Shown here in pieces: positions 1 through 3,400 of a stretch of 3,400 nucleotides of DNA. Each line of letters opens with the position of its first letter. Within the stretch, counting starts at the first letter, position 1. The position numbers were made by a program, and so were the translations under genes. The notes beneath the pieces were generated by a model, which made no database searches, had not been told where the DNA came from, and saw only the letters and a program-made list of their open reading frames with translations. The stretch is from a phage, in the sequence record PZ195128.1. One strand, written 5' to 3'.

Positions 1-82
1 TCATCCTTGAAGGCGCTAGGAATGTTTTGCATAAGCGACTCATTTCTGCAGTCTTTTCACCATGCCGTTAGGTTTAGGTGAC

Positions 83-98
83 GGTATTTCCAAATACC
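83..98 (+). promoter_or_regulatory. Candidate RNA stem-loop directly upstream of the maturation gene ribosome binding site
   Basis: Seen in sequence: GGTATTT (83-89) is the exact reverse complement of AAATACC (92-98), giving a 6-bp stem with a 4-nt loop once the innermost pair is opened. It directly abuts GGAGG at 99-103. Function is inferred only. Confidence 0.3.
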
Positions 99-103
99 GG
101 AGG
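99..103 (+). promoter_or_regulatory. Shine-Dalgarno-like GGAGG for the maturation protein
   Basis: GGAGG lies 4 nt upstream of ATG 108. Confidence 0.5.
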
Positions 104-107
104 ATCT

Positions 108-1280
108 ATGTTTCCGAAGTCAAATATCGATAGAAATTACAAGGTTAAACTTATCTCTTACGACAAGAAAGGGAAACTCGTTTCCGACGACTCTTTTGAG
201 CAAGTCGAAAACTATCTCTTTCAAAATCGTTCGAGTACGTATAAACCTGGTTATATCCGTCGCGACTTTCGAAGACCAACGAACTTTTGGAACGGCTATC
301 GCTGTTTCAATCAGCCAGTTGGTACCTTCACTCGGAAACTCTCTGATGGTGGGAGACAAGTTGCTGATTACGGTATCGTGAACCCTAATAAGTTCACTGC
401 CAATAGTCAGCACTTGGGGGACAACATGGTAATTTACCCTGGTCCCTTCTCTATAAATATTGATCAGCGTGCTTCTGTCGAAGTCCTTAATAAACTTTCG
501 CAATCAAACCTCAATATTGGGGTTGCAATTGCCGAAGCTAAGATGACTGCTTCATTACTCGCTAAACAATCTATAGCTCTCATCAGAGCCTACACTGCTG
601 CAAAGCGCGGTAATTGGCGAGAGGTGCTTTCCCAGCTCCTCATCTCCGAACACCGTTTCAGAGCTCCTGCTAAGGATCTCGGAGGTCGATGGCTCGAACT
701 GCAGTACGGTTGGTTACCCCTCATGAGCGACTTGAAAGCTGCATATGATTTGCTTACGCAAACCAAATTGCCTGCTTTCATGCCCTTGAGAGTTACCCGT
801 ACCGTTGGCGGAACGCATAATTATAAAGTGCGCAACGTCGAATCTGCAGGGGATACATGGTCCTATAGTGACCGCTTGTCGGTGAATTACCGAATATGGT
901 ACTTCATTTCCGATCCGCGGCTCGCATGGGCCAGTTCCCTCGGGTTACTTAACCCTCTAGAAATCTATTGGGAAAAGACGCCCTGGTCGTTCGTTGTTGA
1001 CTGGTTCTTACCTGTCGGTAATTTAATCGAAGCCATGAGTAACCCTCTTGGCCTTGATATTATTTCCGGCACGAAGACCTGGCAACTGGAGTCAAAACTT
1101 AATGCGTCGCTTACGGCTTCGGGTTGGTCCGGAACTGCAAAGTTAACTGCATACGCGAAAGCATATGACAGATCTACTTTCTATTCCTTTCCCACACCTC
1201 TACCGTATGTGAAATCCCCACTTAGTGGGCTTCACTTAGCGAATGCATTAGCCCTAATCAACCAACGCCTGAAAAGGTAA
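108..1280 (+). CDS. mat: Maturation protein (A protein, pilus attachment protein), 390 aa
   Basis: The ORF track gives 78..1280 from a GTG. I place the start at ATG 108, which has GGAGG upstream and gives 390 aa, the size I recall for the GA A protein. The translation contains stretches I recognise from the MS2 A protein: [52 protein letters not shown], and the C-terminal YVKSP...[11 protein letters not shown]. Stop TAA at 1278-1280. Confidence 0.9.
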
Positions 1281-1284
1281 TTAC

Positions 1285-1288
1285 GGAG
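1285..1288 (+). promoter_or_regulatory. Shine-Dalgarno (GGAG) for the coat gene
   Basis: GGAG lies 8 nt upstream of ATG 1297 in the 16-nt maturation-coat intergenic spacer. Confidence 0.6.
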
Positions 1289-1296
1289 TTAGCCAT

Positions 1297-1689
1297 ATGG
1301 CAACTTTACGCAGTTTCGTACTCGTCGATAATGGCGGTACGGGGAATGTTACTGTCGTTCCTGTTAGCAATGCCAACGGCGTCGCTGAGTGGCTTTCTAA
1401 TAACTCGCGCAGTCAAGCTTATCGCGTGACTGCCAGTTATCGTGCGTCAGGCGCGGATAAGCGCAAATACACCATCAAACTTGAAGTACCGAAAATCGTT
1501 ACTCAAGTTGTAAATGGTGTTGAGCTGCCTATCTCCGCATGGAAGGCTTATGCCTCCATTGACCTGACCATCCCTATCTTTGCGTCGACCGACGATGTGA
1601 CCGTTATTTCCAAGTCACTCGCTGGCCTGTTCAAGGTCGGGAACCCTGTAGCCGAGGCTATCTCTTCTCAGAGTGGCTTCTACGCTTAA
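1297..1689 (+). CDS. cp: Major coat (capsid) protein, 130 aa
   Basis: The translation MATLRSFVLVDNGGTGNVTVVPVSNANGVAEWLSNNSRSQAYRVT...RKYTIKLEVPKIVTQVVNGVELP...LTIPIFA...GNPVAEAISSQSGFYA carries the hallmark levivirus coat blocks (FVLVDNGGTG, NGVAEW, SRSQAY, RKYTIK, GVELP, LTIPIFA). From memory it is near-identical to the phage GA coat protein. Size is typical (about 130 aa). Stop TAA at 1687-1689. Confidence 0.97.
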   Translation: MATLRSFVLVDNGGTGNVTVVPVSNANGVAEWLSNNSRSQAYRVTASYRASGADKRKYTIKLEVPKIVTQVVNGVELPISAWKAYASIDLTIPIFASTDDVTVISKSLAGLFKVGNPVAEAISSQSGFYA

Positions 1690-1880
1690 TGGGTCTGAAA
1701 GCAAAACATAAGGAAAACCTATGTTCCGATTCACAGAGATCGAAAAGACTCTATGTATGGATCGCACTCGCGATTGTGCTGTCCGATTTCACGTCTATCT
1801 TCAGTCATTGGATTTGGGGTCTTCTGATCCTCATTCTCCGGACTTTGATGGACTTGCCTACCTTCGTGATGAGTGTTTAA
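1689..1880 (+). CDS. lys: Lysis protein (L-type single-gene lysis protein), 63 aa, overlapping the coat stop and the replicase 5' region
   Basis: ATG 1689-1691 shares its A with the coat stop codon (TAATG). The ORF is in a third frame and overlaps the first 160 nt of the replicase gene. The product has a basic, polar N-terminus (KAKHKENLCSDSQRSKR) followed by a hydrophobic segment LYVWIALAIVLSDFTSIFSHWIWGLLILIL containing an L-S dipeptide. This resembles the MS2 L protein core (LYVLIFLAIFLSKFT). Position, size and architecture match levivirus L proteins. Confidence 0.85.
   Translation: MGLKAKHKENLCSDSQRSKRLYVWIALAIVLSDFTSIFSHWIWGLLILILRTLMDLPTFVMSV
1705..1725 (+). promoter_or_regulatory. Translational operator-like hairpin enclosing the replicase start codon (candidate coat-protein binding site)
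   Basis: Seen in sequence: 5'-AACAU-A-AGG-AAAA-CCU-AUGUU-3'. Lower stem 1705-1709 pairs with 1721-1725, one A is bulged (1710 or 1711), upper stem 1711-1713 pairs with 1718-1720, and the loop is AAAA (1714-1717). The replicase AUG (1721-1723) lies in the 3' arm, and the replicase Shine-Dalgarno AAGGA (1710-1714) lies in the bulge, upper stem and loop. The architecture (bulged purine, 4-nt A-rich loop, AUG in the 3' arm) parallels the MS2 operator ACAUGAGGAUUACCCAUGU. Confidence 0.7.
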
Positions 1881-3319
1881 CTAAACATCCCTCACTTGGA
1901 GACAGTAATTCGGACGCACGCCGTAAGGAATTGGCATATGCCAAACTTATGGATAGTGATCAAAGATGCAAAATCCAAAACAGTAACGGATACGACTACT
2001 CTCATATCGAGAGTAGCGTACTGAACGGTATACTCAAGACCGCTCAGGCCCTTGTGGCGAACTTACTTACGGGTTTTGAATCTCACTTCCTGAACGATTG
2101 TTCATTCTCCAATGGAGCCTCACAAGGGTTCAAGTTGCGGGATGCAGCGCCGTTTAAGAAGATCGCTGGGCAAGCAACCGTTACAGCTCCTGCTTATGAC
2201 ATTGCCGTGGCCGCCGTTAAAACGTGCGCGCCGTGGTATGCTTATATGCAGGAAACGTATGGCGATGAGACCAAATGGTTTCGTCGGGTATACGGCAACG
2301 GTTTGTTTTCTGTTCCGAAGAACAATAAAATAGATCGGGCTGCCTGCAAGGAGCCTGATATGAATATGTACCTTCAGAAGGGTGCGGGATCTTTTATAAG
2401 AAAACGCCTCCGCTCTGTCGGTATAGATCTTAACGATCAAACGTGCAATCAGGAATTAGCCCGACTTGGCAGCATTGATGGATCGCTCGCTACTATTGAT
2501 CTTAGTAGCGCTAGCGATTCTATCTCTGACCGTCTTGTCTGGGATTTACTTCCACCGCACGTTTATTCATACCTCGCCCGTATCCGCTCATCTTTCACGA
2601 TGATTGATGGTCGGCTACACAAGTGGGGTCTATTTTCTACCATGGGTAATGGCTTCACATTCGAGCTCGAGTCCATGATTTTCTGGGCTCTGAGTAAGAG
2701 TGTTATGCTGTCCATGGGTGTTACTGGCTCATTAGGCATCTACGGGGATGATATAATTGTCCCTGTTGAGTGTGCTCCAACTCTCCTTAAGGTATTATCC
2801 GCTGTTAACTTTCTTCCTAATGAAAGGAAGACGTTTACTACGGGTTACTTTCGCGAAAGTTGCGGTGCTCACTTCTTTAAAGGTGCCGACATGAAACCTT
2901 TTTACTGCAAGCGGCCAATGGAAACCCTTCCCGATGTCATGTTGCTATGCAACAGGATAAGGGGTTGGCAGACCGTTGGTGGAATGTCAGATCCGCGGCT
3001 CTTTCCAATTTGGAGAGAATTCGCTGATATGATTCCGCCGAAGTTTAAGGGTGGATGCAACCTGGATCGCGACACTTACCTCGTTTCACCTGATAAACCC
3101 GGTGTCACATTGGTTCGTATCGCTAAGGTACGCTCTGGTTTTAACCACGCGTTCCCGTACGGTCATGAAAATGGCCGCTACGTCCACTGGTTGCATATGG
3201 GATCGGGAGAAGTTCTCGAGACCATATCCTCCGCCAGGTTTAGGTGTAAACCTAACTCGGAATGGAGAACACAGATCCCTCTATTTCCTCAGGAATTAGA
3301 GGCCTGCGTTCTCTCCTGA
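1721..3319 (+). CDS. rep: RNA-dependent RNA polymerase (replicase beta subunit), 532 aa
   Basis: Long ORF containing the catalytic YGDD motif (GIYGDDIIVP). Extensive blocks I recognise from the MS2 replicase: DPHS.DF...AYLRDE.LTKHP.LG, FSNGAS.G.KL.DAAP.KK, VPKNNKIDRAACKEPDMNMYLQKG, SVGIDLNDQ, GS.DGSLATIDLSSASDSISDRLVW, FSTMGNGFTFELESMIFWA, RKTF..G.FRESCGAHF, KPFY, GGMSDPRL, PQE. Stop TGA at 3317-3319 followed immediately by TAG. Confidence 0.97.
   Translation: MFRFTEIEKTLCMDRTRDCAVRFHVYLQSLDLGSSDPHSPDFDGLAYLRDECLTKHPSLGDSNSDARRKELAYAKLMDSDQRCKIQNSNGYDYSHIESSVLNGILKTAQALVANLLTGFESHFLNDCSFSNGASQGFKLRDAAPFKKIAGQATVTAPAYDIAVAAVKTCAPWYAYMQETYGDETKWFRRVYGNGLFSVPKNNKIDRAACKEPDMNMYLQKGAGSFIRKRLRSVGIDLNDQTCNQELARLGSIDGSLATIDLSSASDSISDRLVWDLLPPHVYSYLARIRSSFTMIDGRLHKWGLFSTMGNGFTFELESMIFWALSKSVMLSMGVTGSLGIYGDDIIVPVECAPTLLKVLSAVNFLPNERKTFTTGYFRESCGAHFFKGADMKPFYCKRPMETLPDVMLLCNRIRGWQTVGGMSDPRLFPIWREFADMIPPKFKGGCNLDRDTYLVSPDKPGVTLVRIAKVRSGFNHAFPYGHENGRYVHWLHMGSGEVLETISSARFRCKPNSEWRTQIPLFPQELEACVLS
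1749..1838 (+). other. Predicted transmembrane segment of the lysis protein (with L-S dipeptide at 1779-1784)
   Basis: Residues 21-50 of the 63-aa product are almost entirely hydrophobic or aromatic (LYVWIALAIVLSDFTSIFSHWIWGLLILIL). Codons CTG TCC at 1779-1784 encode L-S in the lysis frame. Confidence 0.6.
2741..2752 (+). other. YGDD catalytic motif (RdRp motif C) within the replicase
   Basis: The codons TAC GGG GAT GAT at 2741-2752 encode Y-G-D-D in the replicase frame, within GIYGDDIIVP. Confidence 0.9.
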
Positions 3320-3400
3320 TAGTATCAGGACCTCCCCGGATGGGGTGGGTGTGACCGAAAGGCCACTATGGAGGTGAACCCTCCACCGCCCAAAAGGCGG
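3320..3400 (+). other. 3' untranslated region with a series of stem-loops (probably truncated at the 3' end)
   Basis: Seen in sequence: hairpin 3315-3329 (CCUGAU/AUCAGG) enclosing the replicase stop codon; 3334-3345 (CCCC-GGAU-GGGG); 3351-3366 (GUGACC-GAAA-GGCCAC with a GNRA-type GAAA loop and one mismatch); 3369-3385 (UGGAGG-UGAAC-CCUCCA); 3386-3400 (CCGCC-CAAAA-GGCGG). The window does not show a terminal C-run ending in A. Confidence 0.65.

Follow-up and report, generated by a model that had tools for sequence, protein, structure and literature searches.

The stretch of phage DNA analysed here, 3,400 nucleotides long and hereafter called the window, raises two questions: which virus it comes from, and whether that virus is new. 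We conclude, with a probability of about 0.97, that the window is a cDNA or contig representing plus-strand genomic RNA from a natural Emesvirus japonicum strain, belonging to genogroup II and, within it, to the GA-like subcluster. Emesvirus japonicum corresponds to genogroup II of the F-specific RNA coliphages and used to be called Levivirus 'Escherichia virus BZ13'.

Gene content and species assignment

The whole window aligned by megablast to positions 29-3429 of phage GA (X03869), with 94.6% nucleotide identity, 100% coverage and one single-base gap, which sits in the 3' UTR. The two sequences differ at 183 nucleotides and, in their proteins, at 26 amino acids (five in the maturation protein, four each in the coat and lysis proteins and 13 in the replicase). 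Four intact genes, free of internal stops, lie on the plus strand in the order maturation, coat, lysis and replicase, and all four proteins score above the threshold of the matching Pfam levivirus family (Table 1). The window thus follows the Fiersviridae or classical Levivirus plan, in which maturation, coat and replicase genes with matching protein families share one strand in a genome of roughly 3.4-3.6 kb, and it carries a small overlapping lysis gene of the MS2 L type between coat and replicase. Gene by gene, nucleotide and amino acid identities to GA are 94.4% and 98.7% for maturation, 93.4% and 96.9% for coat, 96.9% and 93.7% for lysis, and 94.9% and 97.6% for replicase, and no gene differs from its GA counterpart by an indel.

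A preliminary description, made from the letters alone, had taken the window for a near-complete levivirus-type genome of group II within the Fiersviridae, with maturation, coat, overlapping lysis and replicase genes on one strand. The extent of the alignment to GA, the open reading frames, the four Pfam families and the GA-like protein identities of 93.7-98.7% all bear this out. It had also described the coat as near-identical to that of GA, which is true of 126 of 130 residues in the GA record and 127 of 130 in PDB 1GAV; the same 127 residues out of 130 are shared with DL10. Its proposed check, a per-gene comparison with Fiersviridae reference genomes including GA, gave for GA the values above, and the outcomes that it had named as contrary, namely no levivirus matches or a coat or replicase below 40% identity, were not seen, the values being far higher.

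RdRP amino acid identities of at least 80% and at least 50% delimit species and genera, respectively (PMC8743537; ICTV Leviviricetes taxonomy 2021). The window RdRP is 97.6% identical to that of GA, 97.9% to DL10, 98.5% to DL20, 90.0% to KU1 and 90.2% to T72, five strains that PMC3499819 places in genogroup II. Since the replicase shares 97.2-98.5% of its residues with eight GA-like strains and 90% with KU1 and T72, far more than 80%, the window belongs to Emesvirus japonicum. Its place in the genus Emesvirus follows from identities of 50.9% to MS2 and fr in global alignment and 52% to MS2 replicases in local BLASTP. We checked the window for frameshifts or stops in the four genes, for a replicase less than 80% identical to every E. 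japonicum member and for a segment with its nearest relative outside the GA-like cluster, and found none of these. Identities to GA-like strains of 96-98% in the coat and 97-99% in the maturation protein suggest that the phage is of serogroup II type and infects E. coli through the F pilus.

The window RdRP lies near the genus cut-off, as does that of GA, itself classified in Emesvirus.

Two kinds of alternative reading frame were discarded. A GTG at position 78 would extend the maturation frame to 400 amino acids; the ATG at 108 was preferred because it follows GGAGG (by 5 nt) and coincides with the start annotated in GA, DL10, DL20, KU1 and T72. Minus-strand frames, the longest of 127 amino acids at 120-503, were taken as chance because the conserved maturation gene covers every base there.

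Table 1. Genes, untranslated regions and predicted RNA structures of the window
Feature	Position	Strand	Evidence and remarks
5' UTR, 5'-shortened	1..107	+	Aligns to GA 29-135; about 28 nt including the terminal GGG... hairpin missing
7-bp hairpin with UCCA loop	82..99	+	Just before the maturation Shine-Dalgarno GGAGG (99-103), overlapping its first G
Maturation (A) protein gene, 390 aa	108..1280	+	Pfam PF03863 (Phage_mat-A), 9.8e-63; same place as GA CDS 136-1308
Hairpin with coat ATG (1297-1299) in loop and 3' arm	1285..1307	+	Predicted fold -8.1 kcal/mol, z = -2.65
Coat protein gene, 130 aa including Met	1297..1689	+	Pfam PF01819 (Levi_coat), 1.4e-37; PDB phmmer 1gav, E = 6.7e-79
Stem-loop at coat gene end	1654..1680	+	Corresponds to GA misc_feature 1683-1707; fold -12.5 kcal/mol, z = -3.15; conserved across group II
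Lysis (L) protein gene, 63 aa	1689..1880	+	Pfam PF11125 (Phage_MS2_lysis), 3.3e-07, 30.6 bits (cut-off 25)
Translational operator hairpin (putative coat-binding)	1705..1725	+	-4.9 kcal/mol, z = -2.8; holds replicase ATG 1721-1723
RNA replicase beta-subunit (RdRP) gene, 532 aa	1721..3319	+	Pfam PF03431 (RNA_replicase_B), 3.1e-219
3' UTR, 3'-shortened	3320..3400	+	Last 37 nt including terminal ...CCCA missing (end alignment with GA, DL10, DL20 and KU1)

Shortened ends and predicted RNA structures

All coding sequence is present, and what the window lacks are the extreme termini, corresponding to GA nucleotides 1-28 and 3430-3466 of 3466. In an end alignment, GA, KU1 and the metagenome contigs reach further 5' than the window, whose 5' UTR is GA-type, and the 3' end missing relative to GA, DL10, DL20 and KU1 reads ...GGUGACUAGUUUGCUUGGCUAGUCACCACCCA. 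A complete 5' end is expected to start with GG(G)U... and to form the CCCCUUUCGGGG hairpin. Both authentic levivirus termini, the 5' GG(G)... hairpin and the 3' ...ACCACCCA, are absent from the window, which is coding-complete without authentic ends; the natural molecule itself was presumably complete.

Near the shortened 5' end, positions 9-56 are predicted to form a stable hairpin (-18.7 kcal/mol, z = -3.3). In the smaller hairpin ahead of the maturation gene, all 63 of 63 cells pair across nine distinct group II sequences. Seven of them have A-U as the closing pair, 88:93, whereas GA has G-C and the window U-A; two private substitutions of the window thus compensate each other. In a 66-nt context the minimum free energy favours a competing helix, and this hairpin, supported by a single covarying pair, is one of several alternative folds. 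By analogy with MS2, the hairpin around the coat start codon may act as the coat initiator hairpin. The GA annotation gives the counterpart of the stem-loop at the coat gene end a potential role in control of the lysis gene.

Coat stop and lysis ATG have one A in common (UAAUG, 1687-1691), and the 3' part of the lysis gene runs 160 nt into the replicase gene in another frame. The coat-lysis junction is of the GA-like type: TAATGGG, without an 18-nt insert, is common to the window and the eight GA-like genomes. The encoded protein is basic at the N-terminus and hydrophobic over its C-terminal two-thirds, contains one LS dipeptide (residues 31-32), and matches DL10 and the annotated BZ13 DL20/JP34 protein at 62 of 63 residues each and GA at 59 of 63.

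At the replicase start, the putative operator has a bulged A between its 6-bp lower stem and a GG/CC upper stem, which is capped by an AAAA tetraloop. This GA-type element, ACAUA-A-GG-AAAA-CC-UAUGU, is identical in 11 of 11 aligned group II genomes and is predicted to bind coat protein; its counterpart in X03869 is annotated as misc_feature 1733-1753, 'pot. binding site coat protein'. It matches the Rfam MS2 operator family RF02359 weakly, with 18.1 bits under a gathering score of 40. The Rfam scan of the window returned no unexpected RNA families: besides this sub-threshold operator, there was a minus-strand snoRNA match (RF01128, 17.6 bits against a gathering score of 45), which we rejected as chance. 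The replicase downstream carries its catalytic YGDD at amino acid 341 (nucleotides 2741-2752).

Position within the GA-like cluster

In a pairwise matrix, the window shares 93.6-94.9% of its nucleotides with the eight GA-like genomes, which are all those assembled for comparison and include GA, DL10, DL20 and five metagenome contigs (L030, L031, L033, L034 and L037), and about 85% with KU1 and T72. The preliminary description had singled out GA as most similar. GA is indeed among the nearest genomes (94.6%), but it holds that place jointly with DL10 (94.7%) and one Logan contig (94.8%), with whole-genome identity reaching 94.8-94.9% at most. Megablast matches to DL10 and DL20 likewise span the full length, at 94.6-94.7%. 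The GA-like cluster looks star-shaped: its lineages differ pairwise by about 5%, and identity between known strains is 93-96%. Being about equidistant from all eight genomes, the window forms a lineage of its own in the cluster.

The window has 50 private nucleotide positions. Private amino acid changes are S43 in the maturation protein, I79, S97 and V118 in the coat, and N102, R369 and R432 in the replicase. Ser97 occurs in the window only among the named group II coats retrieved, and I79 is shared with no compared group II coat except that of phage SD. Codon position 3 holds about 80% of the differences from relatives (relative to GA, positions 1, 2 and 3 account for 9, 1 and 56 differences in the maturation gene and for 11, 6 and 58 in the replicase gene), a substitution pattern typical of purifying selection.

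We asked how these observations bear on other origins of the window. If it were an already sequenced or named group II strain (GA, BZ13, TL2, JP34, SD, TH1, DL10 or DL20), there would be no strain novelty. Species and subcluster are the same, and the identities fall within the range known between strains. Yet the coats of GA, DL10, DL20, T72, KU1, TL2/BZ13, SD, JP34, 1GAV and 1UNA each differ from that of the window by 3-7 residues, and whole-genome identity goes no higher than the value given above. Moreover, a search of about 15 billion protein sequences, NCBI nr among them, returned no exact copy of any of the four proteins, and no indexed contig carries the exact replicase. The window thus does not duplicate a catalogued record, and its identity with a named strain is unlikely.

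Recombination between the GA-like and the KU1/T72-like subcluster, or across genogroups as described for the JS strains, would have precedents: environmental leviviruses are reported to recombine (PMC3499819), and the reference record of DL20 has an MS2-like 5' end. However, a simple 300-nt sliding identity scan against ten genomes revealed no mosaic pattern: GA-like genomes are nearer than KU1 and T72 throughout, and all of them give parallel identity profiles. With the 5' UTR and the coat-lysis junction both GA-type, recombination is very improbable. Even less credible is a new Fiersviridae species or genogroup, for which nothing speaks beyond the nucleotide divergence of about 5% and against which stand RdRP identities of 90-98.5% to E. 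japonicum members, compared with a cut-off of 80%.

We consider it reasonably probable that the window represents a previously unsequenced natural lineage in the GA-like cluster, whose coat set I79, S97 and V118 may slightly shift antigenicity or particle stability. If so, the shift would be relative to the reference strains that serve as water-quality indicators. The novelty is at the strain level only, as the preliminary description had anticipated of a known or closely related virus; this is an ordinary new strain of a known species, with no new gene, architecture or regulatory element in the window.

Expected gene expression and relation to known leviviruses

Established knowledge of MS2 and GA from the literature suggests how such a genome would work. 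The genomic RNA would serve as polycistronic mRNA, with the coat gene translated first. Ribosomes ending at the coat stop would restart at the overlapping UAAUG and make lysis protein, and the replicase subunit, with its YGDD, would copy the RNA together with host factors. Coat dimers would later bind the operator and switch off replicase translation, the same contact nucleating packaging, and each virion would carry one maturation protein that attaches to both the RNA and the F pilus. F-specific RNA coliphages of genogroup II are used as standard indicators of human faecal pollution (PMC6963950). The window adds one coding-complete strain, a data point on within-genogroup diversity, and otherwise matters little.

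GA (X03869/NC_001426), of E. japonicum genogroup II, has the same gene order, protein lengths (390, 130, 63 and 532 amino acids) and intergenic spacing as the window, and its UAAUG junction and operator hairpin sequence are the same. The BZ13 strains DL10 (FJ483837) and DL20 (FJ483839) and the five ENA/Logan contigs also share this architecture, each being as distant from the window as from one another. KU1 (AF227250) and BZ13 T72 (FJ483838), of the same species by RdRP, make up a second genogroup II subcluster; they keep the gene order and an identical operator hairpin, but carry an 18-nt plus a 3-nt insertion between the coat stop and the lysis gene, which starts with TTG and encodes a 64-amino acid L protein. 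MS2 and fr (Emesvirus zinderi, genogroup I) share the genus and the four-gene plan, with protein identities to the window of 38-40% for maturation, 60% for coat, 29-33% for lysis and 51% for replicase. Their lysis gene starts inside the coat gene (in MS2 at 1678, the coat ending at 1727), whereas that of the window starts at the coat stop. Their operator is built to the same shape as that of the window, its bulged A and 2-bp upper stem leading to a tetraloop, but the loop of MS2 is AUUA where that of the window is AAAA.

Gene content and relationship to known coliphages

The plus strand of the window carries four uninterrupted ORFs, encoding the maturation, coat, lysis and replicase proteins, and no minus-strand ORF in the window exceeds 127 aa. 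All four products match the corresponding Pfam levivirus family above its curated threshold, in agreement with the preliminary description of a levivirus (Fiersviridae-type) genome with this gene order, including the overlapping lysis gene, on one strand. The maturation ATG lies 5 nt downstream of a GGAGG (99-103); an in-frame GTG at 78 was rejected, as it is the annotated start in none of the relatives. The lysis ATG and the coat stop share one A (UAAUG, 1687-1691), and the lysis and replicase genes overlap by 160 nt in different frames. The replicase contains YGDD at residue 341 (nt 2741-2752). In the lysis protein, the N-terminus is basic, the C-terminal part is hydrophobic, and the LS dipeptide occurs once. 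The 5' end lacks approximately 28 nt, the terminal hairpin region found in GA, KU1 and several contigs, and the 3' end lacks 37 nt (...GGUGACUAGUUUGCUUGGCUAGUCACCACCCA). All coding sequence is present, so that the genome, correctly described as near-complete, is coding-complete and not end-complete.

Coding and RNA features of the window
Feature	Position	Strand	Product	Properties
Hairpin 5' of maturation gene	82-99	+		adjoins maturation Shine-Dalgarno
Maturation protein	108-1280	+	390 aa	Phage_mat-A, 9.8e-63
Coat protein	1297-1689	+	130 aa	Levi_coat, 1.4e-37
Lysis-control stem-loop	1654-1680	+		matches GA annotated element; predicted fold -12.5 kcal/mol
Lysis protein	1689-1880	+	63 aa	Phage_MS2_lysis, 3.3e-07
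Operator hairpin	1705-1725	+		6-bp stem, bulged A, GG/CC upper stem, AAAA tetraloop; -4.9 kcal/mol, z = -2.8
Replicase	1721-3319	+	532 aa	RNA_replicase_B, 3.1e-219

Megablast against 50,697 phage records returned nine matching records, every one from an F-specific RNA coliphage. The top match is GA (X03869/NC_001426; 94.6% identity, 100% coverage, GA 29-3429 aligned to window 1-3400). The BZ13 strains DL10 and DL20 reach 94.7% and 94.6%, KU1 and the BZ13 strain T72 85.6% and 85.8%, and MS2 and fr match only in short replicase segments. Per-gene identities, computed with the gene annotation of the reference records themselves, gave levivirus matches throughout, with no indels in any gene relative to GA, DL10 and DL20. 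The coat and replicase are far above 40% identity to their GA counterparts.

Amino acid identity (%) of the window to reference phages (GA: nucleotide / amino acid)
Phage	Maturation	Coat	Lysis	Replicase
GA	94.4 / 98.7	93.4 / 96.9	96.9 / 93.7	94.9 / 97.6
DL10	96.7	97.7	98.4	97.9
DL20	98.5	96.2	98.4	98.5
KU1	90.3	94.6	93.8	90.0
T72	90.0	95.4	90.6	90.2
MS2	39.8	60.3	28.8	50.9
fr	38.0	60.3	32.9	50.9

Where the window differs from its relatives, approximately 80% of the substitutions are at the third position of a codon. Compared with GA, codon positions 1, 2 and 3 differ at 9, 1 and 56 sites in the maturation gene, 4, 1 and 21 in the coat gene, and 11, 6 and 58 in the non-overlapped part of the replicase gene. 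As judged from sequence, such an excess marks the genes as functional and subject to purifying selection.

A lineage within the GA-like cluster

The exact sequences of all four proteins are absent from approximately 15 billion proteins, a collection that includes NCBI nr, and the exact replicase was found on no indexed contig. Replicase homology search returned one 90% cluster of 19 members, containing GA, KU1, three BZ13 strains and metagenome sequences from ENA and Logan, from which we added five more near-full-length contigs to the comparison. When all were aligned jointly, the window shared 93.6-94.9% identity with each of eight GA-like genomes, which mostly share 93-96% with one another (a few pairs are closer, maximum 98.9%). 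Given these similar mutual distances, the cluster is star-like and the window forms its own lineage within it. This refines the earlier statement that the genome is most similar to GA, since several other relatives are as close as GA. In a 300-nt sliding identity scan, the profiles of the GA-like genomes all move up and down in parallel, KU1/T72 are the nearest relatives in no segment, and there is no sign of a mosaic pattern.

The window has 50 private nucleotide positions. Its coat differs by 3-7 residues from every named group II coat compared (GA, DL10, DL20, T72, KU1, TL2/BZ13, SD, JP34, PDB 1GAV and 1UNA); Ser97 (codon 1585-1587) is unique among 15 group II coat sequences, and Ile79 (1531-1533) is shared only with phage SD among the coats compared. 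A single residue separates the lysis protein from its DL10 counterpart, and likewise from that of DL20/JP34. In the replicase, Arg369 (codon 2825-2827) and Arg432 (3014-3016) are private, and Asn102 (2024-2026) occurs also in KU1/T72 and in no GA-like genome.

Two reference records are unusual. The 1986 GA record (X03869) encodes coat Ala59 and Gly79 (window codons 1471-1473 and 1531-1533), whereas 1GAV, the GA capsid crystal structure sequence, and all other group II coats have Thr59 and Val79, except for Ile79 in the window and SD. Its lysis protein also has several singular residues (E16, Y49). All these residues may stem from errors in sequencing the reference or be specific to the clone. 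The DL20 record (FJ483839) is almost identical to the MS2 5' UTR over its first ~80 nt (1-80), which lie upstream of window position ~59 and do not resemble the 5' UTR of GA, KU1, the window or any of five GA-like metagenome contigs; for this reason its megablast alignment starts only at window 59. Either natural recombination between groups or a laboratory or primer artefact would account for this 5' end.

Three IMG/VR partial metatranscriptome contigs (L008, L010, L015) share 88-90% identity with the window and 93-98% with T72, and hence belong to the KU1/T72 subcluster. This suggests that environmental datasets commonly include members of both subclusters.

RNA elements and proposed expression

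The predicted operator hairpin, whose 3' arm holds the replicase AUG, corresponds to the potential coat-protein binding site annotated in X03869 and is invariant in 11 out of 11 aligned group II genomes. The GA-type operator is a well-characterised element. The Rfam MS2-operator model RF02359 matches weakly at 1704-1724 (18.1 bits, gathering score 40), which fits a GA-type and not an MS2-type loop; being under threshold, GA-type operators in genogroup II genomes are overlooked by default Rfam annotation. Upstream of the maturation gene, two private substitutions of the window, U88 and A93, face each other in the closing pair of hairpin 82-99; this pair is U-A in the window, G-C in GA and A-U in most strains. 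They may represent a compensatory change beside the maturation ribosome binding site. In a longer context the minimum free energy fold is a competing helix (62-70 with 79-87), suggesting that the region could adopt alternative folds. With a single covarying pair and the competing helix preferred, support for the hairpin is modest.

By analogy with MS2 and GA, the plus-strand RNA would act as mRNA, with main ribosome entry at the coat gene. Ribosomes ending at the coat stop would restart at the overlapping lysis AUG, and replicase translation would be coupled to that of the coat. Later, coat dimers would bind the operator, repressing replicase translation and also starting encapsidation. The replicase subunit and host proteins would copy the RNA via a minus strand, the maturation protein, at one copy per virion, would bind RNA and F pilus, and the L protein would cause lysis.

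Classification and comparison with known strains

The 2021 Leviviricetes taxonomy sets RdRP amino acid identity cut-offs of 80% for species and 50% for genus, and places BZ13 in Emesvirus japonicum and MS2 in E. zinderi (PMC8743537). With an RdRP identity of 90-98.5% to KU1, GA and the BZ13 strains, and of 51-52% to MS2, sequence comparison assigns the window to E. japonicum (genogroup II), for which GA, KU1, DL10, DL20 and T72 are listed as sequenced strains (PMC3499819). The preliminary observation is confirmed and its interpretation supported, including the expectation of novelty at the strain level only. The genes of the window, their arrangement and its regulatory elements are all known already; judging by sequence, the sole novelty is a divergence of ~5% from the nearest relatives, inside the normal spread of the cluster. 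The significance is accordingly small, as this is one more strain-level sequence of a known species. KU1 and T72 carry 18-nt and 3-nt inserts at the coat-lysis junction and a TTG start, whereas the window has the UAAUG junction of GA.
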